Positions 3,602-64,000 of a stretch of 64,000 nt of DNA are shown one piece after another (the first letter of the stretch is position 1; each line of letters opens with the position of its first letter). The stretch is taken from positions 5,504,001 through 5,568,000 of the forward strand of contig OZ245838.1 of the NCBI GenBank assembly GCA_965228735.1, read 5' to 3'. The translations under genes and the position numbers were made by a program. This DNA is from Planctomycetota bacterium. GTDB lineage: Bacteria; Planctomycetota; UBA1135; UBA2386. The notes under the pieces are model-generated. The model did no database searches, had not been told where the DNA came from, and was given only the letters and a program-made list of their open reading frames with translations.

Positions 3602-4123
3602 CTACAACCCGACCGTCAGCGTCCCACCATTCGTCGCCAGCGGCGGGACGAACACCTGGCCCTGCTGCAGTCGCGACAGCAGGATCTGCTGATGCAGCTG
3701 CACGCCGACGAGATTCGACGTGTTCGGCACCGTGATGTCGAAGCTCGGCGAAGCATTGCTCGGCCAGCCCGGGGCGCAGCCGCTGTTGCTCATCACGTTC
3801 ATCGTCGTGACGGCATCGGGTGACACGAGCAGCGTGAAGCCCTGGGGCAGCTGCGCCGGCAGCGGGACGCCGCTCCAGGTCTGCTTCGAGAAGCCGGTGA
3901 GCAGCCACATCGCCCATGGCGTGATCGCGAGGGTGCAGCTGATCGGAGCGGGCGTGTAATCGACGGCGACGGAGAACGTCGTCCCGAGCTGCGGCAGGCC
4001 GGTCACGGTGAGGGCCTGGCCGTAGCTCGTCTCGCCGCTCGCCGAGCCGAAGAACGTGTAGCTCGCGGCCTGGGCCGAGAGGCCGACGGCGAGGGCGGCG
4101 GTGGTGACGCCGAAACGGATCAT
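3602..4123 (-). CDS. small secreted protein made almost entirely of the recurrent terminal domain
   Basis: Signal peptide MIRFGVTTAALAVGLSAQ. Domain motifs are GLPQLGTTF, GVPLP, VPNTSNLVGVQLHQQ and TNGGTLTVG. An alternative ATG lies at 4141. Confidence 0.7.
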   Translation of the reverse strand: MIRFGVTTAALAVGLSAQAASYTFFGSASGETSYGQALTVTGLPQLGTTFSVAVDYTPAPISCTLAITPWAMWLLTGFSKQTWSGVPLPAQLPQGFTLLVSPDAVTTMNVMSNSGCAPGWPSNASPSFDITVPNTSNLVGVQLHQQILLSRLQQGQVFVPPLATNGGTLTVGL

Positions 4124-4304
4124 GGAATGCAGGGGGGTCATCTCGACAAGGGTAGCCCGCTGCGGCCTCGGGGTAACGGGGGCCTGCGGTGGCAGCGGTG
4201 GCAGCAGTGGCGGGCCTCCTTCGAACAGAAAGCCTGGCACCGGTCGCGCCCGAACAGCGCCTGACCCGGCGTATCCACGAACCAACTTCAAAGAGACCCC
4301 TCTG

Positions 4305-5699
4305 ATGCGAAACTCTACTGCATTTCCTTCCCCGCTCGCCGGCGTCCTCGTTGCCGCCGCATTGAGTCTGACCGCCCTGCCCGCCCAGGAGTGGTATCGC
4401 GACGCGGCGAACTCGGCGCCGCCCGCGCGTCGCTTCCACGCCGTGGCGCACCTGAACGGCGAGACGTTGCTGTTCGGCGGCATCGACGAACGCTCCAACA
4501 CGGTCTACGGCGACCTCTGGTCGTACGACGGCCTCGAGTGGCAGCAGCGGACCGTCACCGGCCCGACACCGGGGCCGCGCCAACGCTTCGCGTACTGTGT
4601 CGACACCGCGCGTTCTGTTCTGGTGCTCTTCGGCGGCCTCGACGCGGCTGGCCAGGTCCTCGGTGACACCTGGGAGTTCGACGGCTCGGCATGGTCGGCA
4701 GTCGCCACGGCGACGGCGCCGTCGGCGCGGACCGGCGCCGCGATGGCGTTCGATTCGGGGCGCGGTGTCGCCGTGCTGTTCGGTGGCGGCGACGCCAACG
4801 CCGCGAGCGACGAGACCTGGGAGTTCGATGGTCTGACCTGGCAGCAGAGCGCCGCGGCGACGCCGCCCGGTGCCCGCCAGGGCCACGCGATGGTCTACGA
4901 CCCGACCCGTGGCGTCACCGTGTTGTTCGGTGGCTTCGACGCCGGGCAGTCGACGTTCGTCGAGGACACCTGGACGTTCGACGGCGCGAGCTGGTCGCAG
5001 ATCGTCACGCTGACCACACCGAGCACGGCCGTCTTTCCGGCGATGACCTTCTTCGCCGCGCACGACGTCGTCGTCATGACGGGCGCGCTCGGCGTGCCGA
5101 GCCAGCCCGTGCGCACGTGGGCTTTCGACGGCGTGGACTGGCACCCCGGCCCGACCGCACCGCCTGAGTTCGGCGGTCGCCAGGCCCACGGCATGGCCTA
5201 CGACGGTTCGCGCGACCTGATCGTCGTCTTCGGCGGCGCGCGCATCAGTTTCGGTGGCGCCCTGCCGCTCGACGAGACCTGGGAGCTGTCGACGCCGGCG
5301 GTCTTCGAACGCTTCGGCGCGGGTTGCCCGATCGGCCAGCGCATCCCCGACCTGGATCCCGTCGCGGGCGCGCGACCGCAGATCGGCAGTCGATTCGAGC
5401 TCGAGCTGCGCAGCCCCGGCGTCATGGCATCGTTCGCCTTCGGCTTCGACGACACCACGTTCGCCGGCGTGCCGCTGCCGGCCGACCTGTCGGTGGTCGG
5501 CCTGCCGGGGTGTCAGCTCCACACGAGCATCGACCACGCCCTGCTCGCGCCGATCTCCAACGGGACGGCAATCGCCGCGCTCGACCTGCCGCTCTACCCA
5601 GCGCTGCTCGGACTGCAGTTCTTCGCGCAGGCGTTCGTCCTCGATACCGCTGGTCCCGCCGCGATGTCGAACGCCGGGCGACTGACGGTCGGCAACTGA
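4305..5699 (+). CDS. secreted Kelch-like beta-propeller protein with the recurrent C-terminal domain
   Basis: Signal peptide, about six repeats of the form H-AM-YD...VLFGG...DTWEFDG..W, and a C-terminus FGAGC...QAFVLD...SNAGRLTVGN. Confidence 0.85.
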   Translation: MRNSTAFPSPLAGVLVAAALSLTALPAQEWYRDAANSAPPARRFHAVAHLNGETLLFGGIDERSNTVYGDLWSYDGLEWQQRTVTGPTPGPRQRFAYCVDTARSVLVLFGGLDAAGQVLGDTWEFDGSAWSAVATATAPSARTGAAMAFDSGRGVAVLFGGGDANAASDETWEFDGLTWQQSAAATPPGARQGHAMVYDPTRGVTVLFGGFDAGQSTFVEDTWTFDGASWSQIVTLTTPSTAVFPAMTFFAAHDVVVMTGALGVPSQPVRTWAFDGVDWHPGPTAPPEFGGRQAHGMAYDGSRDLIVVFGGARISFGGALPLDETWELSTPAVFERFGAGCPIGQRIPDLDPVAGARPQIGSRFELELRSPGVMASFAFGFDDTTFAGVPLPADLSVVGLPGCQLHTSIDHALLAPISNGTAIAALDLPLYPALLGLQFFAQAFVLDTAGPAAMSNAGRLTVGN

Positions 5700-5821
5700 A
5701 TCACGCGAGTCGTTCTCTTCGAAGCCGCCGGGTCAGCACTCGTTGTCGAGCGCTGGCCCGGCGGTTTCTTCGTAGCGGTCGAATCGTGGCACCGTGCCCG
5801 CGGCTCTGGCGCCATGCCGTC

Positions 5822-7465
5822 ATGCAACGATGCGCTCTGTGGCTCTCTTTCGCGCTCGCCGGCTGTGCGATCCGCGACGCCGGTACTCCCGCCGACCCGG
5901 CGATCTCGACCGAACTCCGCGCGCTTGGCGGGCACACGTTCCGCGTCACGACCGCGAACGCGGCCGCGCAGGACTGGTTCGATCGCGGGCTCGCGTGGTG
6001 CTACGGCTTCCATCACGAGGAGGCGAAGCGCTGCTTCCGCGCGGCCCTGGCGGCCGATCCCGATTGCGCGATGGCGCACTGGGGGCTGGCCTACGCGTCC
6101 GGCCCGCACATCAACAACATGGAGATGTCGCCCGAGGCCGCGCGGCTCGCACACGAGAATGCGCAGCGTGCCGTGGCGCGCAGGATGCTCGCCTCGCCGG
6201 TCGAGCGCGCGCTGATCGACGCGATCGCGGCGCGCTACACCTGGCCCGCGCCAGCGGAGCGGCGCGCGCTCGACGAGGCCTACGCCGCGGCGATGGCCAA
6301 GGCCTACGCGCTGTTCGGAGAACATCCCGACGTCGGCTCGCTCTACGCCGAATCGCTCATGGACCTGCGGCCCTGGGACCTGTGGCGGGAGGACGGCAGT
6401 CCGCAGCCCGAGACGCCGACGATCCTCGCGGCGCTCGAGCGGGTCATGGCGAGCTGCCCGCGCCACCCGCAGGCCAACCATCTCTACATCCACGCGGTCG
6501 AGGCGTCCCGCACGCCCGGTCGCGCGTTGCCGGCGGCGAATCGCCTGCGCGGCCTCGCGCCCGCGATCGGTCACCTGCAGCACATGCCGGCCCACATCGA
6601 CATCCGCCTCGGGCGTTACGAGGCCGCGGTCGAGGCCAACCGGCAGGGCATCGCGGCCGATCTGGCGGTCGTGGCCCGCACCGGACGCGAGGGCTTCTAC
6701 GAGATCTACCGCGCGCACAACTACCACTTCCTGGCCTATGCCGCGATGTTCGCCGGCAACGAAGCCGAGGCGATCGCCGCGGCGCGCGAGCTGACCCGCG
6801 AGCTGCCGGCCGACGTCGTGCGCGCGCTGCCGGAGTTCCTGGAGTTCTACGTGGCGGTGCCGCTGCACGTGCTCGTGCGCTTCGGCCGCTGGGACGCGAT
6901 CCTCGCCGAGCCGCGCCCGCCCGAGTGGCAGCACAGTCATCGCGCGATGTGGCACTACGCGCGCGGCGTCGCGCTCGCCGCGCTGGGCCGCGTCGACGAA
7001 GCCGTGCTCGAGCGGTCGGCGTTCGATGCAGCTGCCGAGGTCGTTCCCGCGGAGTGGATGGCCGGCAACAACCCCACGCGCACGGTCCTCGCGATCGGGG
7101 CGAAGTTCCTCGAGGGCGAGGTCGAGTTCCGGCGCGGCAATCACGACGTGGCGTTCGCCGCGCTGCGCCGGGCCGTCGCGCTCGACGAGGCGTTGCGCTA
7201 CGACGAACCCTGGGGCTGGATGATGCCGCCAGCGCACGCGCTCGGCGCGTTGCTCCTCGAGGCCGGCCGGGTGGCGGAGGCCAGGCCCGTCTACGAGGGG
7301 GATCTGCGGCGCCACCCCGAGAACGGCTGGGCGCTGCAGGGCCTCCGGGAGTGCCTGCAACGGACGGGCGCGAGCACCGCGGCTGCGGCGGTCGACGACC
7401 GGTTCCGGACCGCCTGGCGGCACGCGACGGTCGAGATCGCGGCCTCGTGCTTCTGCCGGCAGTAG
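5822..7465 (+). CDS. TPR-repeat lipoprotein
   Basis: Lipobox LAGC. Motifs AQDWFDRGL..YGFHHEEA, HLYIHAVE, HLQHMPAHI, YDEPWGW and PENGWAL are typical of this TPR family. Confidence 0.85.
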   Translation: MQRCALWLSFALAGCAIRDAGTPADPAISTELRALGGHTFRVTTANAAAQDWFDRGLAWCYGFHHEEAKRCFRAALAADPDCAMAHWGLAYASGPHINNMEMSPEAARLAHENAQRAVARRMLASPVERALIDAIAARYTWPAPAERRALDEAYAAAMAKAYALFGEHPDVGSLYAESLMDLRPWDLWREDGSPQPETPTILAALERVMASCPRHPQANHLYIHAVEASRTPGRALPAANRLRGLAPAIGHLQHMPAHIDIRLGRYEAAVEANRQGIAADLAVVARTGREGFYEIYRAHNYHFLAYAAMFAGNEAEAIAAARELTRELPADVVRALPEFLEFYVAVPLHVLVRFGRWDAILAEPRPPEWQHSHRAMWHYARGVALAALGRVDEAVLERSAFDAAAEVVPAEWMAGNNPTRTVLAIGAKFLEGEVEFRRGNHDVAFAALRRAVALDEALRYDEPWGWMMPPAHALGALLLEAGRVAEARPVYEGDLRRHPENGWALQGLRECLQRTGASTAAAAVDDRFRTAWRHATVEIAASCFCRQ

Positions 7466-7582
7466 GCGAGGCCCGGGGGGGAGCCGGGGAGCTGGCGATT
7501 CGAGAATTCCTGGCACCCCCGAAATGCTCCTGGCGCGAGGGCACCGACCCCCCTGATCCCTGACTCCCTCGGAGGCTTCGCA

Positions 7583-8704
7583 ATGCTCGCTCTCTCTGCT
7601 CCCCGCTCTGTCCTCTGCGCCGCGGTGCTGTTGCCGCTCGCGGCTGCTGGGCTCGACGCCCAGACCCTCGTGCCGGTGCCGGCCCACGCGCCCGTGGCTG
7701 ATGGCCACGAGTCCGTGGCGCTGCCGTTCGGCGTGCCGGGATTCCGATCGCAGATCCTCGTCGACGCCACGCGCCTCGGCCCCGCCGGCGCCGTCGTCAG
7801 CGCGCTCCGGTTCCGCGCGGATCGCGGTGCGGCGCCGCAGCCGGCGGTGACCGTGCCGAACGTGACCGTGCGGCTCTCGCACTCCTCGGTGCCGATCGGT
7901 GGGTTGTCCCCGATGTTCGCGAACAACGTCACCCAGGCGGCGACGACCGTCTTCCAGGGGACGGTCACGCTGCCGGCGCAGAGCGTCAGCTTCGGCGCGC
8001 CGCAGCCGTTCGATGTCGTCATCCCGCTGACCGCGCCGTTCACCGTCGTGGCAGCCAACGGCAACCTGCTGATCGACATCACCGGCCTCAACGCGGTAGG
8101 TGGCACGCCGGCGTTCTACCTCGACGCGATGCTGGGCGGCGGCTCGGCGACCGTCTACGGCCAGCCGGGCACGAATCCGACCGCGGACACGCTGCGGCTC
8201 AACGTCGCCACCGGCAACTCGCTGTCCGCGCGACGGCTCGTTCCCGGGCAGCTCGTCGACTTCAACTCGATGCTGTCGTTCACGTCGCCGCCGGGGTTCT
8301 TCGGCCTGGCGTTGAACGGGCGGACGACGCCCCTCGACCTCGGTCCGCTCGGCGCGCCGTCGCACGCCGCCTACATCGACCCGGTCGCGCTCGCCCCGCT
8401 CGTGTGGCAGCAGTCGTTCATCGGCTACTTCGCGACCGTTGGGGTCGCGGTGCCGCTGGATCCGAGCTACGTCGGGCTGCGGCTCTACGGTCAGTCGGTC
8501 CTGCTCGATCCGGCCGCGAACGCGCTCGGCGTCCTCACCGGTCCCGCAGCCGAAGTGCGGATCGGCGACGCGCAGCTCGCCTTCCCGATGCAGCAGGTGG
8601 ATGCCTTCGACCCGCTCTCGTCGAGCGGCACGGTCCTCGATTTCGGGTTCGGCAGCCCGGAGTTCGGCGCCACCCCGATCGCGTTCGACGCGGTCCCGTT
8701 CTAG
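7583..8704 (+). CDS. secreted protein with the recurrent terminal domain
   Basis: A GGAGG RBS and a signal peptide ending DAQ. C-terminal PLDLGPLGAP...VPLDPSYVGLRLYGQSVLLDPAANALG. Confidence 0.8.
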   Translation: MLALSAPRSVLCAAVLLPLAAAGLDAQTLVPVPAHAPVADGHESVALPFGVPGFRSQILVDATRLGPAGAVVSALRFRADRGAAPQPAVTVPNVTVRLSHSSVPIGGLSPMFANNVTQAATTVFQGTVTLPAQSVSFGAPQPFDVVIPLTAPFTVVAANGNLLIDITGLNAVGGTPAFYLDAMLGGGSATVYGQPGTNPTADTLRLNVATGNSLSARRLVPGQLVDFNSMLSFTSPPGFFGLALNGRTTPLDLGPLGAPSHAAYIDPVALAPLVWQQSFIGYFATVGVAVPLDPSYVGLRLYGQSVLLDPAANALGVLTGPAAEVRIGDAQLAFPMQQVDAFDPLSSSGTVLDFGFGSPEFGATPIAFDAVPF

Positions 8705-9462: not shown

Positions 9463-9465
9463 CCC

Positions 9466-12045
9466 GTGGACCGCGTGAAGACCCTGTTCGAGAACGCCGT
9501 CGAGCTGCCGGCGTCCGAGCGAGCGCGGTTCGTCGCCGAATCGTGTGGCGATGACCTCGCGCTTCGACGGCGACTCGAAGGTCTGCTCGCCGCGCACGAC
9601 GAGGCCGGTGACTTCCTGGAGCACCCGACGGGTCTCGTCGACGCTGCCGTTCTGGCCGCGCGGGAGGGCGTCGGGACGCCGAACGAGGCTGCCGGTGACA
9701 GAGTCGATCGCTTCGTGCTCATGACGGAGCTCGGCAGCGGCGGTTTCGGCACGGTTTGGCACGCGCGGCAGGAGGAGCCGGTGACCCGTGAGGTCGCGCT
9801 CAAGGTCCTGCACGCGCGATTGGATCAGCCGAGCCTCGCGGAGGCGTTCTACGCCGAGCGGCAGAATCTCGCGCGCATGCGGCACCCGTCGATCGCCAAG
9901 GTGCTCGATGCGGGCGTCGCGGATGGTCGCCCGTGGATCGCGATGGAGCTCGTCGACGGCGCCCCGATCGTGCGGGCCTGCGAGGCCCGCGCGCTCGACC
10001 TGCGGGCGCGGCTCGGCCTCTTCGTCGAGGTCTGTCGTGCCCTCCAGCACGCGCACGGCAAGGGCATCGTGCACCGCGACCTCAAACCGTCCAACGTGCT
10101 GCTCACGGATGACGCCGGGCGCCTGCGGCCGGTCGTGATCGACTTCGGCATCTCGGGTTCGCTGGACGGTCGGATCGGCCGGCCGGGAGTGGCCGGAACA
10201 CCCGAGTACATGAGTCCGGAGCAGGCCGCCGAAGACGACGACGCCGTCGACGTGCGGACCGATGTCCACGCCCTCGGGGTGCTGCTCTACGAACTCGTCG
10301 CTCGAGCGCGCCCGTTCGTTCGCTCGTCCGCCGACGAGCCTGCCACCGAGATCTTGCGGCGGGTGCGCGAACACGAGCCGGCGCCGCCGAGTCGGGTGAG
10401 GACCGCCATGCCGGGCGTTACCGGCGAGCTCGACGAGATCGTCGGGCAGGCGCTGGAGAAGGACCCGGAGGCCCGCTACCCGACGGCCAACGCGCTCTGT
10501 GAGGACGTCCAGCGTTACCTGCAGCACCGCCCGATCCACGCGCGCGAGGGCCGTCCTGGCTACGTCCTGCGCAAGTTCGTCCAGCGGCACCGGGTCGCGG
10601 TGTTCGCGGTCACGGTGATCGTGCTGACCTCGTTGACGGCTGCCGTCGTCGCGACGCGAGGCTACCTCGCTGCGCGCACGGCGGAGCAGAGCGCACGCCG
10701 CGCTCTCGACGTGCTGGACGAGGTCTGGCTCGCGGCCGATCTCTCGCGGTTCGGCAGCGCGGACTACCCGGTGCGCGAGCTGTTCGCCGATTTCGAGCGC
10801 GCGTTGCCGGGTTTGCTGCCCGACGAGCCGGCGGTCGAGTTTCGCATCCGGCTGTCGATGGCGCGGCTGCAGCGCGCGGCCGGCGTCTTCGATCGGGGGC
10901 TCGCTCACGCCGAGCGCGCGACCGAGCTGGCGCGCGGTATCGAAGGTACGGACTCGCCGTTGCCGGCAGCGCTGCTCGAGCTCGGTCGCATCCAGTACGG
11001 CCGCAACGAGGCGGCGGCTGCCGTCGCGACCGCGGTGGCCGGACTGGCGGCACTCGGAAACCGTGCCGCGCCGGGGCCCCGGGCCGAGTTCGAAGCACTG
11101 CGGGCCGAAGCGTTGCTGCGCAGCGGTGACATCGAGGCGGCGATGGCGGCGGGCGAGCGGGCTGCGGCGCTCTTCGAGGTGACCGGGGATCCCGCTCAGC
11201 GGCCGAACGGCGAGCTGCTCCTCGCGAGCCTGTTCGGCGCCATCGGTCAAGTCGACGTCGCGCTCGAGCACTTGCGGGCGGCGCAGGCGCACTTCGCCGC
11301 GGCCGGGGGCAGCATCGGCGACGAGCTCGTCGCCCGACAGCACGAAGCGATGCTGCTGGCTCGCCGCGGTGACCACGTCGCCGCCGAGGTCGCGATGCGC
11401 GATTGCCATGAGCGGCGGCGCGAGCTCTTCGGTCCCGGTCATCCACTGGTCGCGTCGACCGCGAGCGACCTGGCCTGGCTCCTCCACGAACTGAAGCGCG
11501 ATGCCGAGGCCGCGGACCTGTTGGTTCCCGCGATCGACGACCTGCGCACGCGACTCGGAGAGCGGCACCTGTTCGTCACCGAGGCCATGCAGCGGCTCGG
11601 GGCCGTGCGGGTCGCGCTCGATGAACCGATCGCGGCCGAGGAGCTGCTGCGCGCGGCGATGGACCGCTATCGGACGCTGCCCGCGCATCCGCCGGACGGT
11701 CTGATCGGCTGCATGAACAACCTCGCGGGCCTGCTGTGGCAGCGCGGCGATCGCGAGCAGGCTGCGGATGTCACCGGGCGCGCGCTCGCACTCGCGCGGG
11801 CCGAACTGCCGCGCACGCACTTCGTGCTCTCCGTGACGCTCACCAACCTCGCGTACATGCAGCAGGGGCTGGGCCGCGACGAAGCGGCGGCGACGTTGCT
11901 CGGCGAAGCCCTGACGCTCTCCGAGGAGAACGGCCGTGCCGGGGAAGCGCGGATCCAACGTCGTCGCCTCGTCGCGATGCTGCGCCAGCTCGGTCGCGAT
12001 GCCGAAGCGGATCGGGTGGCGGGGAACGGCGCCGAGGGCCGCTGA
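9466..12045 (+). CDS. membrane-anchored Ser/Thr protein kinase with C-terminal TPR repeats
   Basis: GSGGFG, VALK, HRDLKPSN, DFG and GTPEYMSPEQ, then a TM helix and TPRs. It starts 3 bp after the ECF gene. Confidence 0.93.
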   Translation: MDRVKTLFENAVELPASERARFVAESCGDDLALRRRLEGLLAAHDEAGDFLEHPTGLVDAAVLAAREGVGTPNEAAGDRVDRFVLMTELGSGGFGTVWHARQEEPVTREVALKVLHARLDQPSLAEAFYAERQNLARMRHPSIAKVLDAGVADGRPWIAMELVDGAPIVRACEARALDLRARLGLFVEVCRALQHAHGKGIVHRDLKPSNVLLTDDAGRLRPVVIDFGISGSLDGRIGRPGVAGTPEYMSPEQAAEDDDAVDVRTDVHALGVLLYELVARARPFVRSSADEPATEILRRVREHEPAPPSRVRTAMPGVTGELDEIVGQALEKDPEARYPTANALCEDVQRYLQHRPIHAREGRPGYVLRKFVQRHRVAVFAVTVIVLTSLTAAVVATRGYLAARTAEQSARRALDVLDEVWLAADLSRFGSADYPVRELFADFERALPGLLPDEPAVEFRIRLSMARLQRAAGVFDRGLAHAERATELARGIEGTDSPLPAALLELGRIQYGRNEAAAAVATAVAGLAALGNRAAPGPRAEFEALRAEALLRSGDIEAAMAAGERAAALFEVTGDPAQRPNGELLLASLFGAIGQVDVALEHLRAAQAHFAAAGGSIGDELVARQHEAMLLARRGDHVAAEVAMRDCHERRRELFGPGHPLVASTASDLAWLLHELKRDAEAADLLVPAIDDLRTRLGERHLFVTEAMQRLGAVRVALDEPIAAEELLRAAMDRYRTLPAHPPDGLIGCMNNLAGLLWQRGDREQAADVTGRALALARAELPRTHFVLSVTLTNLAYMQQGLGRDEAAATLLGEALTLSEENGRAGEARIQRRRLVAMLRQLGRDAEADRVAGNGAEGR

Positions 12046-31198: not shown

Positions 31199-31360
31199 GG
31201 CTGATGACTGGCGGCGGGTGGCTGGTGGCTGGCGGTCGATGGCAGGTCGCTGGGGGCCGCCGAGTGTATCCGCGGCCCGAGACGGTGATGTCGCGACCGT
31301 GTCCCGGGGCCGATCCGGGAGCGGATGGGGCCGTCCACCGTTATCCTCGTCATGATGAGG

Positions 31361-39330: not shown

Positions 39331-39455
39331 CCCGCGGGTCCTCGAGGCGCTGGCGGGTCGTTCCTCGGCCGTCGAGCGTCGGTCGCGAGGCGGCGCGCTT
39401 CACCCGGGCCATGAGCCTGGCACGAAGCCGAGTGCGGTCTGGCTACGATGACGAC

Positions 39456-45451: not shown

Positions 45452-46497
45452 CGGCGGTCGGCGATTGGTTTCGCGAGCGTCTGCCGCTGCAGGGCGATCA
45501 GCTCAAGGAACTCACCAACGAGCCGGTCCCGAACCATCTCAAACACTGGTGGTTCTGCCTCGGCGGCACGCCCGCGTACCTGTTCCTCGTGCAGATCGTG
45601 ACCGGCATCCTGCTCGCGTTCTACTACGAGGCGACGCCGAGCCGGGCCTACGAGTCGGTGCGCTTCATCTCCGAGGATGTGACCTTCGGGTGGTACCTGC
45701 GCGGCCTGCACCGGTGGGGAGCGACGCTCATGGTCGCGAGCGTGATCCTGCACCAGATGCGGGTCTTCTTCACGGGCGCGTACCGCAAGCCGCGCGAGAT
45801 GAACTGGATGATCGGCATGTGCCTGCTGATGTGCACGCTGGTCGTCGGGTTCACGGGTTACTGCCTCGTGTTCGAGCAACTGAGTTTCTGGGGCGCGCAG
45901 GTCGGGGCCGAGATCACCGACGAGGTGCCGCTCATCGGCGGGTTCATGAAGGAGATGCTGCTCGGCGGCGACGGCTACAACAAGAACACGCTGTCGCGCT
46001 TCTTCGTGCTGCACGCGGCCGTGCTGCCCGTCGTGATGATCCTGCTGATCTTCGTGCACATCACGTTCATCCGTCTGCAGGGCATCGCGGAGATGAGGTT
46101 CGGGGACGAGAAGCCCGACACGCCGCGGTTCTTCAACTTCTTCCCGGACCACGTCGCGACGGAAGTGATCATGGGACTGGTCCTCATGATCCTGCTCAGC
46201 GTGCTGGCGACCGTGTTGCCGGCGACGATGGGCGAGGTCGCGAACCCCAACGTCACGCCCGAGGTCATCAAGCCCGAGTGGTTCTTCTACGTGACGTTCC
46301 GCTGGCTCAAGTTGTTCTCGATCACCGCTGCGGTGCTCAGCATGGGCCTCATCGTCTTCCTCATGTTCGTCTGGCCGTTCATCGACGGCTGGGTGCGCCG
46401 CCGCTGGCCAGGATCCGAGTTCAGCGTCTGGGTCGGGATCCTCGCCGTGCTGGCGATCCTCGGCCTGACCATCTGGGAGGGCGCCGTCGCCCACTGA
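45448..46497 (+). CDS. cytochrome b (fused b6 plus subunit IV type)
   Basis: WFCLGG, heme-ligand His in LHRWGA...ILHQ and VLH-x14-H, GAYRKPRE and IKPEWFF. Confidence 0.95.
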   Translation: MTAVGDWFRERLPLQGDQLKELTNEPVPNHLKHWWFCLGGTPAYLFLVQIVTGILLAFYYEATPSRAYESVRFISEDVTFGWYLRGLHRWGATLMVASVILHQMRVFFTGAYRKPREMNWMIGMCLLMCTLVVGFTGYCLVFEQLSFWGAQVGAEITDEVPLIGGFMKEMLLGGDGYNKNTLSRFFVLHAAVLPVVMILLIFVHITFIRLQGIAEMRFGDEKPDTPRFFNFFPDHVATEVIMGLVLMILLSVLATVLPATMGEVANPNVTPEVIKPEWFFYVTFRWLKLFSITAAVLSMGLIVFLMFVWPFIDGWVRRRWPGSEFSVWVGILAVLAILGLTIWEGAVAH

Positions 46498-46546
46498 GCC
46501 GACGTTGCGCTCTGTCGCACCCGCTACCGCCTCCCTCAAATACGCC

Positions 46547-48166: not shown

Positions 48167-48190
48167 GTGATCGACCCGAGGAACGACGAG

Positions 48191-50560
48191 ATGAGCGACC
48201 AACGACATCCGGATCGGCGCGGTTTCCTGCGCGCGCTGGCGTGCACGCCCGCCGTCGCCGCGTTCTCCGAGCGCGACCGCCGCGAAGCCGAGCAGCTGCG
48301 CACGGCCCACGGCGAGGCCCCGGCCGACCGCCTTCGTGACCTCGATTGGGCGAAGGCGCCGTGTCGCTACTGTGGGACCGGCTGCGGGGTCGAGGTCGGG
48401 GTGCGTGACGGCAAGGTCCAGGCCGTTCGAGGTGACGAGAACAGCCCCGTCAACAAAGGCCTGCTCTGCGTCAAGGGCTACCACCTGCCCGCGATGCTCT
48501 ACGGCAAGGACCGCCTCACGCGACCCATGCTGCGTCGCAACGGCGTCCTCGAGCCGATCTCCTGGGACGAGGCCCTCGACCTGATCGCGGAGAAGTTCGG
48601 GGCGGCGCTCGAGGAGAAGGGGCCGGACGGCGTGGCGATGTACGGCAGCGGCCAGTGGACGGTGTTCGACGGCTACGCGGCGCTGAAGTGGGTCAAGGGC
48701 GGGATGAAGTCGAACAACATCGACCCCAACGCCCGCCTGTGCATGGCCAGCGCCGTGATGGGATTCGTGACGCAGTTCCAGAGTGACGAGCCGATGGGGT
48801 GCTACGAGGACCTCGATGTCGGCCAGGACTTCTACCTCTGGGGCAACAACATGGCCGAGATGCATCCGGTGCTGTTCAGCCGGATGCTCGAGAACAAGCG
48901 CCAGAACCCGGACGTGCGCATCATCGACATCGCGACGCGCCGCACTCCGACGAGTGACTACGCGGATGTCTACGTCGAGTTCCGACCCGGCAGCGATCTC
49001 GCGCTCGCGAACGGCATCCTGCATCTGCTCGTGCAGAACGGCGGTGTCGACCGGGCGTTCGTCGACGAGAACTGCGTCTTCAAGCGCGGCATCGAGGATC
49101 TCGAGGAGATCGGCTACGGCTGCTTCGGCGAGCAGGCCGAGAGCTACGAGTTCAAGGATCAGGCGAGGGACTCGAGCTACGACGAACTCGTCGAGTTCTT
49201 GAACGACTACACCCCGGACAAGGTGGCCGAGACGACCGGGGTGTCCGTGGCGCAGATCGAGCTGCTCGCCGAGATGTACGGCGACCGGGCCAGACGCAGC
49301 GTCTCCCTCTGGTGCATGGGCGTGAATCAACACACCCGCGGCACCTGGATGAACAACCTGCTCAACGACATTCATCTGTTGACGGGCAAGATCAGCCGGC
49401 CGGGGAACAACCCCTTCAGTCTCACGGGGCAGCCGTCCGCGTGCGGCACGGTGCGTGAGGTCGGTACCCTGGCGAACCGGCTCCCGGCCGACATGGTCGT
49501 GATGAAGGAGGCGCATCGGCAGAAGGCCGAGGAGATCTGGAAGCTGCCGGCGGGCACGATCAATCCGCAACCCGGGCATCACGCCGTCGACATGTTCCGC
49601 GCGTTCGCGCGTGGCGACACGAAGGCGATGTGGGTGCAGGTGACCAACCCCTGGGTCACGATCCCGAACCTGCGCCGGATCGAGCGCCAGCCCGGCGACG
49701 GCAAGTTCCTCGTCGTCAGCGACATCTACCCGACGCCGACGACGGACGTGGCCGACCTCGTGCTGCCGTCGGCGGCCTGGGTCGAGCGCGAGGGTGTGTT
49801 CGGCAACACCGAGCGCCGCACGCAGCAGTGGAACAAGATGGTCGAGCCGCCCGGGGAGGCCAAGGAAGACGCCTGGCAGATCATCCAGGTCGCGCGGCGC
49901 ATGGGCATGGGGCACCTGTTTCCGTGGCCCGATGAGTCGTTCCACGAGGCGATGTTCGAGGAATACCGCAGCTTCGGACTCGGCACTGGCAAGGACCTCG
50001 CGAGCTACGAGCAGCTCAAGAAGGCGCCGGGTCTCATGTGGCCCGTCGTCGACGGCAAGGAGACGCGCTACCGCTACGCGGCGGGGTTCGATCCCTACGT
50101 CGAGAAGGCCAAGGGCGTGCACTTCTACAAGGCGAAGGGCTACGGCGAACGGGCCGCGATCTGGCTGCGGCCGTACCACCCGCCTGCGGAGGAGCCCGAC
50201 GAGGACTACCCGCTGTGGCTCTGCACCGGTCGCGTGCTCGAGCATTGGCACACGGGGTCGATGACGCGCCGTGTGGCGCAGCTGCATCAGGCCGTGCCCA
50301 GTGCCTACGTCGAGCTCAATCGCGCCGATGCGCTGCAGCTCGGGATCAACAACGGCGACAGCGTCCGGCTCGTGTCCAGGCGCGGTGAGCTCGAGATCGA
50401 GGCGCGGATCGACGGCCGCGGCAAGACGCCTGCGGGCTCCGTGTTCGTGCCGTTCTTCGACGAGAAGCTGCTCGTCAACGACCTCACGCTCGATGCGCTC
50501 GACTGCATCAGCAAGGAACCGGACTACAAGAAGTGTGCGGTCCGGGTAGAGCGGGCATGA
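48191..50560 (+). CDS. napA: periplasmic nitrate reductase catalytic subunit
   Basis: Tat motif DRRGFL, 4Fe-4S motif CRYCGTGC..CVKG, GSGQWT, NARLCMASA, SLTGQPSACGT, GRVLEHWHTGSMT and DYKKCAV. Confidence 0.95.
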   Translation: MSDQRHPDRRGFLRALACTPAVAAFSERDRREAEQLRTAHGEAPADRLRDLDWAKAPCRYCGTGCGVEVGVRDGKVQAVRGDENSPVNKGLLCVKGYHLPAMLYGKDRLTRPMLRRNGVLEPISWDEALDLIAEKFGAALEEKGPDGVAMYGSGQWTVFDGYAALKWVKGGMKSNNIDPNARLCMASAVMGFVTQFQSDEPMGCYEDLDVGQDFYLWGNNMAEMHPVLFSRMLENKRQNPDVRIIDIATRRTPTSDYADVYVEFRPGSDLALANGILHLLVQNGGVDRAFVDENCVFKRGIEDLEEIGYGCFGEQAESYEFKDQARDSSYDELVEFLNDYTPDKVAETTGVSVAQIELLAEMYGDRARRSVSLWCMGVNQHTRGTWMNNLLNDIHLLTGKISRPGNNPFSLTGQPSACGTVREVGTLANRLPADMVVMKEAHRQKAEEIWKLPAGTINPQPGHHAVDMFRAFARGDTKAMWVQVTNPWVTIPNLRRIERQPGDGKFLVVSDIYPTPTTDVADLVLPSAAWVEREGVFGNTERRTQQWNKMVEPPGEAKEDAWQIIQVARRMGMGHLFPWPDESFHEAMFEEYRSFGLGTGKDLASYEQLKKAPGLMWPVVDGKETRYRYAAGFDPYVEKAKGVHFYKAKGYGERAAIWLRPYHPPAEEPDEDYPLWLCTGRVLEHWHTGSMTRRVAQLHQAVPSAYVELNRADALQLGINNGDSVRLVSRRGELEIEARIDGRGKTPAGSVFVPFFDEKLLVNDLTLDALDCISKEPDYKKCAVRVERA

Positions 50561-55707: not shown

Positions 55708-58287
55708 GTGACCGACACGGCTCTGACCCGAACGCTGACCGAGCAGCTCGACGCGCTGCGCGCGCTCGCGCACCAGCTCGTGCGCGATCCCGAGTACGCG
55801 GACGACGCCGTGCAGGATGCGTGCGTCGCGGTGCTGCGTCGGCAGGGTCGGGCGCCGCGAACCGTTCGCAGCTGGTTCGGCAACGTCGTGCAGAACGCGG
55901 CGCGCCAGCGGGTGCGCGGCGAGCAGCGGCGGCGCGAACGCGAACGCACGGCGCACGAACTGCGCGATGGCGAGCGCGACGACGGGGCGGATCCCGCGGC
56001 GGCGTTCGCGGATCTCGCGCTGCATCGTCGGCTGCTCGCGCACGTCAGCGAGCTGCCCGCGCGGCAGCGCGCGGTCGTCACCCTGCGATTCTGGCGCGGC
56101 GCGTCGACGCGCGAGGTCGCGGTGACCCTCGGCATCACGGCGCGCGCGGTGCGCGACCGGCAGCAGGAAGCGCTGCGCGAGCTGCGCCGTCGCCTCGACG
56201 CCGAGTCCGGCAGTCGCCGGGCGTGGGCCCTGCCGCTCGCGGGCTGGGTCGGCAGCGGACCGGCCGGCGCGGAGCCGGCGGCGACCGCCTCCACCTTCAC
56301 CCTCTTCACCAGTTGGTTCGTCATGCCTGCCAAGCTCCTCGTCGTGAGCGGCCTCGTGCTCGCCGTTGCCGCCGTCGCGTTCGTCTTCGGGAGCGATCCC
56401 GCCGATCCCGCGCTCGATCCCGACGCCGACCGCACGGCCGTGGTGGACGAGTCGACGACCGGCGCGGCTCGCCTCCCGGAACAGCGCGAGGTCGAGCGCG
56501 CGGCGGTCGAGACCCCGGTCGCGGTCGAAGAGCCGAAGGCTCCCGCGGAGGTTCGCATGCTGCGCGGCGTCGTCGCGGACCTCGCGGGCAAGCGGCTCGC
56601 CGGCGTGCCCGTCGTCTTCGATCCGGACGGCGACGATCAGGCGCGTTCGGAGCCGGTCATCACCGCGTCCGACGGTGCGTTCGTGCTGCCGTTCCCCGAG
56701 GAGAGGGGCAACGTCACGACGGTCGAAGGCGGCGACTGGGCGACGGTGCGGCGCTATCGCCACGACGACCGCGGCAACCCCGAGAGCGTCGTCGTGCTCG
56801 TCGCGCCGGCGCGCGATTACGCGGGGACCGTGATCGACCCCGACGGCGCGCCGGTGAGCCACGCGCAGGTCGTGATCGACGTGCCGGAGGTCGGGCGCAC
56901 GCGGCTCCTCGACGGCGTGGCGCTGCACCTGCCGCACGACCTCGGCATGACCGAGACGGATGGCAGCGGGCGCTTCGCGTTCGCGGACATCGGCTGGCTG
57001 CCGGGGTGCAAGGTCGTCGCGCGGCGCTCGCCGTTCGGCGGGGCCGAGGTCGAACTGCCGGCCGTCTCGACGGGCAACCTGCTGCTGCAGCTGAGTGCGC
57101 CGACGCCGCAGGACGCGATCTACGGCATCGTGCTCGATGCGAGCGGCACCCCGGTGCCGGATGCTTCCGTCGCCGCGGGCGCGCTCGCAGGCAAGACGGC
57201 GCGCGACGGCACGTTCCGCGCGCTGTGGCGGACCGAGACGCCGCCGGCGTTCGTGAGCGTCGTCGTGCCGCGGCTCGGCGCCGCGACGGCGACGTTGCGG
57301 CGCGGTCCTGGCGAGCCCGGCTGGAGCGCGGACAACCCGGTCGTGCTGCAGCTACCGCGGGCACCGCTGCGGCTCACCGGCCGCGTCGTCGACAGCGACG
57401 GCAACCCCGTCGCGGGCGCGCGCGTGTGGACGCCCGACCTCACGTTCTTCGGTCAGGTCGTGCGCGATGCGCAGGGTCACGAGGTCTACTCCGAGTGCTC
57501 GGTGGAAGAGCAGTTCGGTGACCACAACATGCTGGAGGTGCGCACCGTCACGGATCAGGACGGCAACTTCGAGCTCGCAGGGGTGTTGCCGCGCGACTAC
57601 GCGCTGTTCGCGCTCGACCCGCGCACGGCCGCTGCCGTCGGGCCGGTCGTCGCCAACGCCAACGGACCGGTCGAGCTGCGGCTCGGCGGCGAACCGCGCC
57701 GGCGCGTCGCCGGCCGCATCCGCACGGCAAAGGGCGAGCCGCTCGCCGGCGTGCATGTTCGCCTCGCGCGCGAGATGCCGTGGCAACGTCCCGAACGATC
57801 GCCCGACCCGTGGACGGGTTCGCCGATGGCCCCGCCGCGCGCGACGAGCGGTCGCTTCGGCGAGGGCGCAGTGACCGACAGCGACGGCCGCTTCGAGCTC
57901 GCGCCCGTCGCGGTGACCGGCGTGTCGCTGCGCTTCAGTGGTGACAACCTGATGATGCCGCGGCCGTTCGCGCTCGCGTCCGCCAGTGATCTCGAGAACC
58001 TCGACATCGAGCTGCCGGCGCGGTCCTCGATCCGGGTCGTGCTCGAGTCGGTCGAGGTCGCGGACTCGTTCTCGCTCGTCGGACCGAACGACGGCCACGT
58101 GACGATCCTGCTGCGCGCCGAAGGGTTGCTCCTGTCCGTGGGCAAGGTCGAGTTCGCGGCCGGGGTCGCGCCCGTCGTGATGACCGACGCGCGGCCCGTG
58201 ACGCTGATCCTGTGGCGGGGCGACGAGGAGATCCGGCGGCAGCCGCTCGAGCTGCGCCCCGGCGGGCCGCACGAGATTCGATTGTGA
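55708..58287 (+). CDS. ECF sigma factor fused to a TM helix and extracytoplasmic carboxypeptidase-regulatory-like repeats
   Basis: Sigma regions ADDAVQDA...SWFGNVVQN and LPARQRAVVTLRFW..STREVA, a TM (LLVVSGLVLAVAAVAFVF), then G.VVD..G.PV.GA.V repeats. Confidence 0.85.
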   Translation: MTDTALTRTLTEQLDALRALAHQLVRDPEYADDAVQDACVAVLRRQGRAPRTVRSWFGNVVQNAARQRVRGEQRRRERERTAHELRDGERDDGADPAAAFADLALHRRLLAHVSELPARQRAVVTLRFWRGASTREVAVTLGITARAVRDRQQEALRELRRRLDAESGSRRAWALPLAGWVGSGPAGAEPAATASTFTLFTSWFVMPAKLLVVSGLVLAVAAVAFVFGSDPADPALDPDADRTAVVDESTTGAARLPEQREVERAAVETPVAVEEPKAPAEVRMLRGVVADLAGKRLAGVPVVFDPDGDDQARSEPVITASDGAFVLPFPEERGNVTTVEGGDWATVRRYRHDDRGNPESVVVLVAPARDYAGTVIDPDGAPVSHAQVVIDVPEVGRTRLLDGVALHLPHDLGMTETDGSGRFAFADIGWLPGCKVVARRSPFGGAEVELPAVSTGNLLLQLSAPTPQDAIYGIVLDASGTPVPDASVAAGALAGKTARDGTFRALWRTETPPAFVSVVVPRLGAATATLRRGPGEPGWSADNPVVLQLPRAPLRLTGRVVDSDGNPVAGARVWTPDLTFFGQVVRDAQGHEVYSECSVEEQFGDHNMLEVRTVTDQDGNFELAGVLPRDYALFALDPRTAAAVGPVVANANGPVELRLGGEPRRRVAGRIRTAKGEPLAGVHVRLAREMPWQRPERSPDPWTGSPMAPPRATSGRFGEGAVTDSDGRFELAPVAVTGVSLRFSGDNLMMPRPFALASASDLENLDIELPARSSIRVVLESVEVADSFSLVGPNDGHVTILLRAEGLLLSVGKVEFAAGVAPVVMTDARPVTLILWRGDEEIRRQPLELRPGGPHEIRL

Positions 58288-58333: not shown

Positions 58334-59893
58334 ATGCGACCCGCCCGCTCGTGCGTTCTCTTCCCTGCGCTCGCGTTCGCGCTGCCGCTGACGGCGCAGC
58401 AACCCTACGGTCACCCGACCGGTGGCGCGGGCGGCTTCGAACCGGCGCTCTCCGCGCCCGGCCCGTGGTTGGGCAATTCGTCGTTCGGCGTCACGATTCG
58501 CGGAGGTGCGGGCGGGGCGCCCGGCCTCGTCGTGCTCGGCTCGGCACCTTCTAGCCTGCCGGTAGCAGGCTTCGAGTACCTCATCGATCCCGCGGCGGTC
58601 ATCGGCTCGATCCTGACGGTGCTCGGTGGTTCGCAGCCGGGTGAAGGCACGGGGACCGTAGCCTTGCCGTTGCCGCCGTCGCCGGTGTTCGCGGGAGTGC
58701 GCCTGTACTCGCAGGCGGTGATCGCGGACGCGGGCGCTCCTGCGGGAGTCGCGGCGACGCATGGTCTGCGGGTCGACCTGACCGACGCGCCGTTGGTCTT
58801 CGTCGGTTGCTCGATCGCGAACGCGGATCCGTTCCAGCTGATCGATCCCTTCGCCGGGGTGGTCGTGGATTCGGGCGCGCCGGCGCAGGTCAACAACGTC
58901 ACCGCAGCTGCCTTCGGCGATGGCGGCCGTCGTCTGTGGGTCGCGTCGAGCATCGCGGGAACGGTCGGGGAGGCCGACGCAACGAGCTTGCCGGCAACCT
59001 GGACGACGATCTTCTCCGGGGGCGGGACGTGCTATGGCCTGGCGTACGATCGGCGGCGCGACTGGCTTTGGACACTGACCAATCCCGGTATCGGCAGCCG
59101 TGAACTGACGGCGCTCGATGTGGCACCGGGCAGCCCGAGCTACGGCCAGGTCGCAACCAATACGGTCGGGGTCGCGAGCGGGATCTACGAGCGCTGGACC
59201 CTGTCGCCGTCGGGGCGACGCGCCGCCGTGCTCGGACTCACCGGCCTGATGGGCACACTCACGATCGTCGACACCGACGATACGTCGCCGACGTTCTTGC
59301 AGAACCTGGTGAACGCCGTCTCCGTGCCCGTCAGCCAGGCGACGACGATCGCGCTCCCGAATCAGGTCCGCATCACACCCGACGACCGCTACGCGCTCGT
59401 GCTCCTGCAGCTGCCCGGGGCGACGCCTGGCGAGATCGCGCGCTACGACATCGAGAACGGCGCGTTCATCGATCACGACCCGGCGACGCCGGCGATCGAC
59501 AACCTCGGCCCGACGAGCTCGCCCCCGATCGCGCTCGGCGGCGCGCCGCACGGCTTCTCGGTCGCGCAGAGCGGCACGTTCGCGATCGTGTCCGGCTTCA
59601 ACGCCTGCGGCTGGATCGGGCGGCTCGAGCTCGACCCGTACGACCCGTTGTCCTTCCAATGGACGACTTGGTCGCCTTCGACCGTCTTGTCGAACGCCTG
59701 GGCCGCGACCCTGTCGCCGGACGAGACGGAGGTCGGGGTGGCGCGGTGGGCGAGCAATCAGTGCACCTCGACGGTCACGCCTGCGTTCGTCAGGCTCGAC
59801 AGCGCGACGGGTACCGTCCTCGGAACCACGGCGATCGCGGCCAACAGCAACTCGTCGACCTTGCAGAACCTCTACACCGTCGTGTATCGCTGA
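58334..59893 (+). CDS. secreted protein with the recurrent domain at the N-terminus followed by a beta-propeller
   Basis: Signal peptide, YGHPTGG...PWLGNSSF...LPPSPVFAGVRLYSQAVIAD...ATHGLRV, then YVTN-like blades. Confidence 0.78.
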   Translation: MRPARSCVLFPALAFALPLTAQQPYGHPTGGAGGFEPALSAPGPWLGNSSFGVTIRGGAGGAPGLVVLGSAPSSLPVAGFEYLIDPAAVIGSILTVLGGSQPGEGTGTVALPLPPSPVFAGVRLYSQAVIADAGAPAGVAATHGLRVDLTDAPLVFVGCSIANADPFQLIDPFAGVVVDSGAPAQVNNVTAAAFGDGGRRLWVASSIAGTVGEADATSLPATWTTIFSGGGTCYGLAYDRRRDWLWTLTNPGIGSRELTALDVAPGSPSYGQVATNTVGVASGIYERWTLSPSGRRAAVLGLTGLMGTLTIVDTDDTSPTFLQNLVNAVSVPVSQATTIALPNQVRITPDDRYALVLLQLPGATPGEIARYDIENGAFIDHDPATPAIDNLGPTSSPPIALGGAPHGFSVAQSGTFAIVSGFNACGWIGRLELDPYDPLSFQWTTWSPSTVLSNAWAATLSPDETEVGVARWASNQCTSTVTPAFVRLDSATGTVLGTTAIAANSNSSTLQNLYTVVYR

Positions 59894-59962: not shown

Positions 59963-61777
<1,815 letters not shown>

Positions 61778-62617: not shown

Positions 62618-63135
62618 ACCTGAACCGGCGGTCGAGCCGAAGTCGCAGAGTCGAGCTCTCGGATCGACAACGACTCGATGAGTTTGAACGTGGCCGCGTT
62701 CGCGGGCTCGCAGGACAGGCCGCGGAAGTCGGGCAGCCGGAACCGGTCGCCCACCTGCTCGAATCGCGGTCCGGCGATCGCGAGCAGCTCCGCGAACTCC
62801 GACTGCAGTGCGGTCCTGCCATCACACAGCAACCAGCCCTCCGGGGCTGACTCGGCCGTGCCGCGGATCATGACGACACTGCCGATCGGCCAGTCATCGC
62901 GGAACAGGGCGGCGCTCGAATCGCGTTCGTGCAGTCGCACGCCGTAGTGATCCCATTCGGCGCCCGCCGTGGCCCTCCCGGTTTCGCTCCACTTGTGCCA
63001 TGGGCGTAGCCAGGCCAAGAACAGGAGAACCAGGCCGACGTAGACCGGCCAGAACGACCAATGCCCGACCCAGCGGCCGATCGGGCCCGGTTCCGGTGAA
63101 GTTGGTCGACGCACGTTGCTCGTTGCCTCGGTCAT
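62599..63135 (-). CDS. membrane-anchored protein with a phage tail-collar-like domain
   Basis: An N-terminal TM, then PIGSVVM....PEGWLLCDG....EFAELLAI.G......FRLPDFRG. Confidence 0.75.
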   Translation of the reverse strand: MTEATSNVRRPTSPEPGPIGRWVGHWSFWPVYVGLVLLFLAWLRPWHKWSETGRATAGAEWDHYGVRLHERDSSAALFRDDWPIGSVVMIRGTAESAPEGWLLCDGRTALQSEFAELLAIAGPRFEQVGDRFRLPDFRGLSCEPANAATFKLIESLSIRELDSATSARPPVQVWLKAR

Positions 63136-63280
63136 CCTTCGGTTGTTGCCCCTGCATCTTCGGATCCAGCCTCGCCCTCGTCCACGTTCGCCCGTCGTCG
63201 GGAGCGCTGCTCAGCGCCCGACGTCGGCTGCGACCGCCACGGTCGTCGGTCGTTCTGCGCCGCAGGCAGTTGCCCGCGGC

Positions 63281-64000
63281 TCAGGGGTTGGTGACCAGGC
63301 TCGGCGTGCCGAGCGCGACGCCGGCAGGCGTCACGAAGGCCGTCTGCATCGCAACGATCGTCCCTGCCGGCAGCGGGGGGTGGGGCAGCGAGGCGGTGTG
63401 CAGTCGGGTGCCGGGAAACGCGGAGCCCGCCACGATCCAGAACGCCGCGGGCTCGATCCAGGCCAGCCCGAACTGCGTTCCGGACTCGGTTGCCGGCAGG
63501 CTCAGGAGGGTCAGGAACGGGGCGCCGGCAGGGCCGTGGGCCTGCATCGTGAGTTGCTGCCCGTTGGTCGATGCGACGAGGCTGCCGAACTCGAACGTCG
63601 CCACCGCGGCCGGCCCCGCGACGGCCGGTTGACCCGAGCCGGGAACGAGGCGGGAGCTCGGATCGAGCAGGATCGCTCCGCCGCTCGTGACGATCGCCGG
63701 ACTGCTCAGGCTGGCGACCAGGTCACTGCGCGTGATCGCCACTTCGCCGTCGACCAGGCGGGCCGCCGGGCTCGGGAACAAGCCGCCGTTCAACGTGCAG
63801 CTGACGAGCGCGGTGCGACCGCCGTCGATCGACAGTCCGGTCGAGAGGACCGGGTCGAAGCCGCATCCCGAGAACACGACGTTCGAGTCGACGACGTTGC
63901 TGCCGCGAAGCGCGACGCCCCCGAGGTGCAGCTGCGCGCAGTCGTTGGCGTCGACCTGCCAACGATTCAGTGCCGCTTGGCCCAGGTTCTCGAGCGTGAC
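63281..64000 (-). CDS. protein ending in the recurrent domain (5' part outside the window)
   Basis: The frame is open to the window end. C-terminal HGPAGAPFL...FGLAWIEP...LPHPPLPAGTIVAMQTAFVTP. Confidence 0.65.
   Translation of the reverse strand, partial: VTLENLGQAALNRWQVDANDCAQLHLGGVALRGSNVVDSNVVFSGCGFDPVLSTGLSIDGGRTALVSCTLNGGLFPSPAARLVDGEVAITRSDLVASLSSPAIVTSGGAILLDPSSRLVPGSGQPAVAGPAAVATFEFGSLVASTNGQQLTMQAHGPAGAPFLTLLSLPATESGTQFGLAWIEPAAFWIVAGSAFPGTRLHTASLPHPPLPAGTIVAMQTAFVTPAGVALGTPSLVTNP

Follow-up and report, generated by a model that had tools for sequence, protein, structure and literature searches.

A Recurrent Terminal Domain of Exported Planctomycetota Proteins: A Candidate Envelope Docking Handle outside the Named Families

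We analyzed a stretch of 64,000 nucleotides (nt), hereafter the window, from the Planctomycetota bacterium assembly GCA_965228735.1 (contig OZ245838.1, positions 5,504,001–5,568,000; the genome is a single contig of 7.19 Mb with a G+C content of ~70%). Seven of its genes encode proteins with signal peptides that share a domain of about 130 residues, usually placed at the extreme C-terminus and matching no named family in the catalogues searched. The domain is predicted to fold as an Ig-like beta-sandwich, and the proteins that carry it (carriers) account for ~6% of the likely-gene open reading frames (ORFs) of the genome (251/4,065). We tentatively suggest that it is a noncovalent docking handle holding its carriers at a common site in the cell envelope, and weigh this suggestion below against a role in secretion and against more generic roles.

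Thousands of proteins from uncultured Planctomycetota end in this domain, which has no name in the catalogues searched, and annotation misses the one feature they have in common. It is poorly understood how planctomycetes distribute proteins within their unusual envelope, keeping some in the enlarged periplasm and bringing others to the surface, and a shared handle would offer a direct route into the question. The domain could be used as bait for a receptor or translocon, and for predicting the envelope proteome from sequence.

The Domain in the Window and across the Genome

A hidden Markov model (HMM) was seeded with eight window segments, for all of which a preliminary description of this DNA had claimed a shared domain, and iterated twice over the 53,303 six-frame ORFs of at least 70 codons in the genome. 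At a domain E-value of 1e-5 or better 254 ORFs match (275 at 1e-3), while the same HMM returns 0 matches from the 53,303 ORFs when shuffled and 0 when reversed, which excludes chance. The eight coding sequences all give the translations described beforehand. To avoid circularity, a further HMM was built from 230 aligned genomic copies with every window copy excluded (Z = 53,303). Seven of the eight segments are recovered at E-values of 2e-31 to 7e-11, but the eighth, at 63281–64000, receives a nonsignificant E-value of 12. The claim therefore stands for seven proteins and falls for the eighth, whose match had been called weaker from the outset. In pairwise BLASTP (genes being named here by their first coordinate), the segment of 36245 matches that of 58334 at 2e-19, 4305 matches 30254 at 1.5e-17, 30254 matches 41268 at 7e-14, and 7583 matches 30254 at 2e-9; the segments of 3602 and 63281 give weak matches. 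An iterated HMM scan of the window found no copy beyond the flagged proteins.

Four of the seven carry the domain flush with the C-terminus. The strongest copy ends an exported protein of 314 residues (30254–31198, minus strand; domain nt 30257–30661; E-value 2e-31), which has a DUF4082-like body by a sub-threshold Pfam match and, at full length, 79 homologs. The protein of 4305–5699 (plus strand) is a Kelch beta-propeller of 464 residues (Pfam Kelch, 2.2e-35) whose final 131 residues are the domain (nt 5304–5696; 3e-25), and that of 41268–42971 (minus strand) is an exported protein of 567 residues with a sub-threshold BNR_2 match and a terminal domain at nt 41271–41657 (8e-17). These three copies belong to a two-cysteine subtype. 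The fourth, in the exported 514-residue protein of 36245–37789 (minus strand; nt 36248–36652; 6e-20), belongs to a cysteine-less subtype and stands on a body with no Pfam family. In the exported 373-residue protein of 7583–8704 (plus strand), a copy with neither cysteine (nt 8150–8569; 4e-13) is followed by a tail of about 41–44 residues. The exported 519-residue protein of 58334–59893 (plus strand) holds a cysteine-less copy right behind the signal peptide (nt 58397–58780; 4e-20). Finally, the 173-residue product of 3602–4123 (minus strand) consists of a signal peptide and one copy (nt 3605–4063; 7e-11) with an insertion of ~20 residues, and this copy is not picked up under default HMMER filters. 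The C-terminal, N-terminal and stand-alone placements are thus as first described. The further description of the proteins as otherwise unrelated is mostly right, with a Kelch body in 4305, the sub-threshold matches in 30254 and 41268, and nothing found by Pfam in the others.

The eighth segment comprises the C-terminal 106 residues (nt 63284–63601) encoded by a 397-codon ORF on the minus strand, of which the window holds the 3' part (63281–64000) and which continues to contig position 5568474. Aligned by hhalign to the domain alignment as a single sequence, it reaches a probability of 0.13%; a profile of six paralogs matches the domain profile with 70% probability (E-value 3.9e-5) over 52 columns in the C-terminal half. 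From these alignments the protein may at most be a remote cousin of the domain family, and we do not count it as a member. It has a small family of its own, six paralogs of 397–485 residues, and the four members found at 1e-8 each lie no more than two genes from the gene of a domain carrier.

Anatomy and Predicted Fold

The consensus of the 254 copies reads ..G.GC.G..G.P.L....P.lG...f.....(loop)..Gf....plPl..G.PGC.l.v.p........G.a...lpiPn.P.l.Gl.l..Q..vlDpga.n..G...Sngl..tiG. and its most conserved positions are a glutamine (97%), a proline (94%) and two glycines (89% and 83%). The two cysteines vary together: 167 copies have both, 52 have neither and 35 have one (Fisher test, 6.5e-25, the paralogs not being independent of each other). 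In subtype alignments the cysteine-less copies, among them those of 36245–37789 and 58334–59893, are without the LP.DL..G.PGC loop and have an extra hairpin further on. Charge is low, with 8.3% charged residues in the domain versus 15.3% in the remainder of the proteins (the passengers) and a median net charge of −4.

Position is strongly biased. The stop codon follows the domain after 0, 1 or 2 residues in 172, 46 and 13 ORFs, so that 231 of 254 copies are flush, and 137 of these 231 close with a hydrophobic strand followed by G-x(1-2). Sorted into classes, 236 copies lie within ten residues of the stop, eight (including 58334–59893) come right after the signal peptide, and ten (including 7583–8704) precede a tail of 29–41 residues. 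Each protein has one copy, and there are no tandem copies. Eight domain-bearing ORFs have 200 codons or fewer; four are clearly a signal peptide plus the domain and the rest are fragment-like. Counting 3602–4123, stand-alone copies number at least five. The C-termini that we inspected end in a beta-strand and then G-x(1-2), with neither a hydrophobic helix nor a basic tail, which makes covalent anchoring of the sortase or exosortase type unlikely; NCBIfam likewise finds no short tripartite sorting signal (PEP-CTERM, LPXTG and similar) in the eight window proteins or in 46 isolated domains.

Structure prediction gave the same all-beta outcome for both subtypes. AlphaFold2 modeled the copy of 30254–31198 from 46 aligned copies with eight strands and no helix (predicted local distance difference test score, pLDDT, 98.0; predicted template-modeling score, pTM, 0.90), and the cysteine-less subtype from nine sequences with ten strands (pLDDT 91.1). 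Both models span 128–135 residues and have no helix of four residues or more. Foldseek found nothing in the PDB at an E-value of 1e-3 or better (top row, 1.9e-3, template-modeling score 0.42). An exhaustive structural aligner matched the first model best to the TEP1r macroglobulin domain (2pn5; Z 9.2, root-mean-square deviation 3.2 Å, 108 residues aligned), followed by CD109, alpha-2-macroglobulin, complement C5 and Ig receptors, and the cysteine-less model to an adhesin repeat (6xi3; Z 9.1, 2.4 Å, 90 residues aligned). The top matches common to both models are generic (2pn5, 3kls, 6grq, 9jtz, 8wm1, 4u48 and 6xi3). To judge by these models, the domain is predicted to be an independent folding unit, an Ig- or macroglobulin-like beta-sandwich with no close solved relative. 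Z values of this size are typical of the common sandwich arrangement; for predicted structures they support the term "Ig-like," which had been proposed from the sequence alone, and nothing further.

Export Signals

The domain had been described as a feature of secreted proteins, and by a simple heuristic 239 of the 254 carriers indeed have a signal-peptide-like N-terminus. In all seven complete window proteins the hydrophobic N-terminus ends in A-Q; the earlier reading had been that most do. Across 158 domain carriers of the genome, the polar residue that comes first behind the hydrophobic region is glutamine in 76% (A-Q in 61%), compared with 38% at the same site of 1,321 other signal-peptide-like N-termini, glutamine being 3.3% of the proteome. 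The carrier signal peptides follow a pattern like the Q-rule, which is described as Bacteroidetes-specific (PMC5837995). Occurring outside Bacteroidota, such signal peptides would suggest that the protection of exported proteins has been solved convergently. The genome has no match to the glutaminyl cyclase family PF05096, for which control genomes are positive. The M28 protein of the window was considered as a glutaminyl cyclase and rejected, as it resembles aminopeptidases instead.

The signal peptidase I encoded in the window (28524–30164, minus strand) is unusually long, with 546 residues, and its S26/TIGR02227 match is limited to residues 21–119. The gene lies 90 nt downstream of the carrier 30254–31198 on the same strand. 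This arrangement does not appear in the ORF listings of two related loci, where no family scan was made.

Catalogue Status and Taxonomic Range

No Pfam family falls on the domain in the eight window proteins, in 103 public representatives, or in 83 of the 248 own-genome carriers outside the window, drawn from the 20 densest stretches (2025 copy; cut-offs 0.1, 1e-5 and 1e-6). Nor does any family of NCBIfam release 20, in the eight window proteins and 46 isolated domains. Precomputed Pfam matches from a newer release cover passenger families only. Neighbors in the ESM Atlas are clusters of "hypothetical protein" sequences, mostly from Planctomycetota, with no common Pfam 38.1 family, and a PDB sequence search has a best E-value of 0.086. 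In the literature outside subscription journals, our searches turned up no description of a planctomycete domain of this kind. The domain is therefore absent from the catalogues searched, in line with the preliminary description, which recognized no named family, and the family itself is real and well defined.

The family is large. A profile of six window copies, run against 1.84 billion proteins, matches 13,222 cluster representatives at an E-value of 1e-3 or better and 3,845 at 1e-10 or better, and in nearly all of the 150 representatives listed the match reaches the end of the protein. A word-based search with the domain of 4305–5699 retrieved four proteins. A single-copy query finds the domain in 20 of 21 close relatives, and a 46-sequence profile finds it in every one of the 81 class genomes sampled, at 1e-8 or better. 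When the phylum was sampled evenly, 23 of 121 genomes were positive at 1e-5 or better, no more than 34 candidates being scored in each; several of the 23 are nearly complete, with 6–20 contigs. Copy number depends on lineage: the source genome's own family and three others have dozens of copies (counts reach at least 51), while two families mostly have 1–10. The organism names on homologs are solely "Planctomycetes" or "Planctomycetota bacterium" metagenome bins, so the proposal of a lineage-specific module holds as far as the sampling goes.

Carriers and Their Spread

Passengers are diverse, and many match no family. Among the 83 own-genome carriers scanned, Pfam recognizes a passenger in 38 and none in 45. 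The recognized ones are propeller-type bodies (13 Kelch, five Rax2/DUF5122, two FG-GAP and one sortilin-type), peptidases (two S8, one M14, one M43 and one trypsin-like) and other enzymes (one sulfatase, two beta-lactamase-like proteins and two dihaem cytochrome c peroxidases), together with two LamG, two DUF7452, one DUF5711, one DUF5060 and one choice-of-anchor I. What defines the choice-of-anchor families is that the sorting tag borne by their members changes from lineage to lineage. The 103 public representatives comprise 40 with Kelch, ten with other families (reprolysin, S8, FG-GAP, RCC1, CARDB, F5/8-C, beta-helix and AAA_5) and 53 with none.

One family of the class has small genomes of ~50% G+C with few copies of the domain. 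Carriers in these relatives include a Porphyromonas-type peptidyl-arginine deiminase (PAD_porph), a dihaem cytochrome c peroxidase and a protein of ~580 residues of no named family (loci L066:3135–4964, minus strand; L068:1304–2938, L065:3453–5180 and L069:2663–4456, all plus strand). One such genome has eight domain matches at an E-value of 1e-3 or better, the deiminase, the peroxidase and the ~580-residue protein among them. In two genomes the ~580-residue carrier has the same flanks, a TPMT-type methyltransferase gene and a metallo-beta-lactamase-fold gene. Peroxidase-plus-domain proteins of ~551 residues make up 14 of the 49 matches in one profile search. Dihaem cytochrome c peroxidases are normally periplasmic enzymes.

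By BLAST the passengers form 81 clusters, the largest with 95, 23 and ten members, and 61 are singletons. The nearest neighbor of a domain sits on a passenger of the same cluster in 149 of 239 cases, versus 41 expected at random, and on one of a different cluster in the other 90. To judge from these sequence neighbors, the expansion seems to be dominated by gene duplication, while one third of the domains have their nearest counterpart on another kind of passenger. The word "mobile," as first applied to the module, is partly supported by that third; the remainder look like whole-gene duplication.

Comparison with Known Systems

The closest functional parallels are the C-terminal domain (CTD) of the type IX secretion system (T9SS; PF18962/TIGR04183) and the dockerins (type I, PF00404; GC-type, NF041540). 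Like the T9SS CTD, the planctomycete domain is a predicted Ig-like sandwich at the extreme C-terminus of Sec-exported proteins, has a conserved C-terminal motif, is present in each genome on carriers that number from tens to hundreds and are unrelated to one another, peptidases and a Porphyromonas-type arginine deiminase included, and goes with glutamine-exposing signal peptides. However, PF18962 matches none of the 8 + 103 + 83 proteins scanned and TIGR04183 none of 8 + 46 sequences. The T9SS CTD is a compact seven-strand, 3+4 Ig-like sandwich according to PMC11285876, whereas the planctomycete domain has ~130 residues with 8–10 predicted strands, a co-varying cysteine pair, eight N-terminal copies and at least five stand-alone ones. 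The fold searches listed other Ig-like chains, and a CTD-type fold is still possible. The phylum also differs, and PF14349 (SprA_N) is unmatched in the genome, as it is in all 14 control genomes.

Dockerins resemble the domain in that a wide range of unrelated exported proteins each bear a single terminal module, at the C-terminus in most cases and at the N-terminus in some, and their noncovalent docking to a common receptor is the behavior that we propose here. Dockerins are small calcium-binding helical modules; the planctomycete domain is all-beta in both models and matches neither PF00404 nor NF041540 in the Pfam and NCBIfam scans. No cohesin-like scaffold was found in a self-repeat BLAST of the 53 largest proteins, the cohesin family itself not having been searched.

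Two further groups are alike in shape. Macroglobulin, Ig and FN3 domains (TEP1r 2pn5, CD109 8s3o, complement C5 3kls, adhesin repeat 6xi3) are the best structural matches, but at 11%–17% sequence identity, and the match gives no functional link. The PPC (PF04151) and PKD (PF18911) appendages are also beta-sandwiches at the C-terminus of exported hydrolases, but have no sequence match to the domain in the Pfam scans, and the planctomycete carriers are mostly nonenzymes in far higher copy number. By analogy, then, the domain would work most like a dockerin or a T9SS CTD. It appears to belong to neither family, because their sequence models are unmatched, the fold is not dockerin-like, and size, strands and cysteines differ from those of the T9SS CTD.

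Proposed Function and Alternatives

The explanation that we prefer, with somewhat less than even confidence, is that the domain is a docking handle that holds its carriers noncovalently at a common envelope site. Carriers would be exported by Sec and cleaved at A|Q, and the domain would then fold in the periplasm, the two-cysteine subtype being locked by a disulfide. It would bind a shared envelope component, whether a protein receptor or a glycan, from whichever end of the carrier it occupies, and the stand-alone copies would either sit at that site too or regulate it. An extracytoplasmic location is suggested by the 239 of 254 signal-peptide-like N-termini and by the co-varying cysteine pair. 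Since the carriers are too diverse for substrate-specific binding, and a single copy at the extreme terminus of each protein disfavors a spacer, a shared address or handle is what remains. The tolerance of position recalls dockerins and S-layer homology (SLH) modules, and by that analogy would support docking. The peroxidase carriers, one of them in the low-copy genome, fit envelope retention better than release.

Several observations weigh against a docking handle. No partner of the domain was found, and the body of 30254–31198, the one conserved carrier examined, occurs in five of the 121 phylum genomes versus the 23 with the domain, which led us to reject it as a core component. No neighbor gene is conserved among the carriers. 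As candidate receptors, a scaffoldin-type protein was sought among the 53 ORFs of at least 1,300 residues, none of which has internal repeats by self-BLAST, and receptor kinases were rejected, as their 37 ectodomains have no domain in common, form 26 clusters without relation to one another, and give no match to the terminal domain. The most conserved residues of the domain look structural. Moreover, the 231 flush ends and the recurrent C-terminal motif would also be expected of a secretion signal with a free C-terminus, and the proteases, the Porphyromonas-type arginine deiminase and the Q-rule-like signal peptides recall T9SS cargo.

These last features keep alive an explanation that we consider possible though rather unlikely, in which the domain would serve at the C-terminus as a sorting signal for secretion through a dedicated outer-membrane translocon, perhaps cleaved later, and be an independent analog of the T9SS CTD. 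T9SS CTDs functionally need their conserved C-terminus, according to PMC11285876, and here the 231 flush copies and the terminal strand-G-x motif of 137 of them are of the kind expected. The hundreds of carriers per genome with Sec signal peptides, the predicted Ig-like sandwich, the T9SS-typical cargo (S8, M14 and M43 peptidases, PAD_porph deiminase, choice-of-anchor I) and glutamine-exposing signal peptides like those of the Bacteroidetes Q-rule (PMC5837995) all point the same way. On the other side, eight copies are N-terminal, ten are subterminal and the stand-alone ones are cargo-less. The domain sits on peroxidases of a normally periplasmic type, and class genomes with 1–10 copies keep it, too few for a large secretome to depend on it in those genomes. 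The lack of any PF18962 or TIGR04183 match in the scans adds to this, as does the failure to find SprA_N and Por_Secre_tail in the genome, although the control genomes are equally silent. Docking is placed above secretion because of the eight N-terminal copies, the stand-alone copies and the periplasmic-type peroxidases; a dockerin-like handle fits N-terminal and stand-alone copies better than does a strictly C-terminal signal of the T9SS type. A bolder version, that the domain is the cargo tag of a new planctomycete outer-membrane system for secretion and attachment, convergent with the T9SS of Bacteroidota, strikes us as doubtful. Should the partner turn out to be a machine, tag-directed export would have been invented twice, each time independently.

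The domain might instead have no sorting role and be a generic Ig-like stalk, spacer, stabilizer or ligand-binding module, similar to a carbohydrate-binding module (CBM), spread by the duplication of exported genes. In its favor, the structural matches go no further than Ig, FN3 and macroglobulin domains of a generic kind (best Z, 9.2 for the first model and 9.1 for the second), the 149 of 239 neighbors with a shared passenger cluster imply plain gene duplication for much of the expansion, and Kelch dominates the carriers (40/103 representatives, 13/83 own-genome). We nevertheless think it unlikely. Spacers and CBMs are commonly internal or tandem, while here each protein has a single copy, nearly always at the extreme terminus, and the passengers span unrelated enzyme classes and at least 81 clusters with their 61 singletons. 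The retention of the domain in all 81 sampled class genomes, and the proteins that consist of a signal peptide and the domain only, also argue against a generic role. Least probable by far is assembly of the carriers into a surface lattice or coat through domains that bind each other. The low charge of the domain compared with its passengers, the very large number of carriers and the stand-alone copies are consistent with a lattice, but there is no direct evidence and no tandem copy, and the genomes that keep the domain in 1–10 copies have too few for a coat.

Neighboring Genes and Other Observations

Relatives of the window locus, sought with a single-protein query, are four uncultured Planctomycetota records; the window's downstream gene order does not appear in the ORF listings of two of them.

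Ser/Thr kinases recur beside carriers in this genome. There are 71 paralogs, of which 39 combine a membrane helix with a large portion facing outward, and one of the genes (9466–12045, plus strand) adjoins the carrier 7583–8704 in the window. Directly beside a domain carrier lie 25 of the 71, against a local gene-order null that averages 8.9 and never exceeds 21 over 3,000 draws. The pairs have no fixed orientation, and the carriers in them are of many kinds. In a second genome the adjacency is weak, with 13 kinase matches within 3 kb versus 11.7 expected and 38 within 8 kb versus 26, among the best 150 of 379 domain candidates.

A second recurrent module, CarboxypepD_reg, is found in proteins adjoining domain carriers, at 31325–33190 (plus strand, five copies), 39411–41267 (plus strand) and about 57370–57680 (plus strand). 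A TPR-repeat protein (5702–7465, plus strand) is encoded between the carriers 4305–5699 and 7583–8704; the ORF 5794–7563 was rejected as a gene, being an off-frame artefact of high G+C.

The window genes between the carriers include those for an M28 peptidase, a Ser/Thr kinase with TPR repeats, and a MoxR/DUF58/transglutaminase set, as well as GreA, flagellin, signal peptidase I, an isopropylmalate/isocitrate dehydrogenase and LepA. Cytochrome b, a multihaem cytochrome c and a molybdopterin oxidoreductase are encoded consecutively at 45412–50560 (plus strand), a respiratory module with no relation to the terminal domain.

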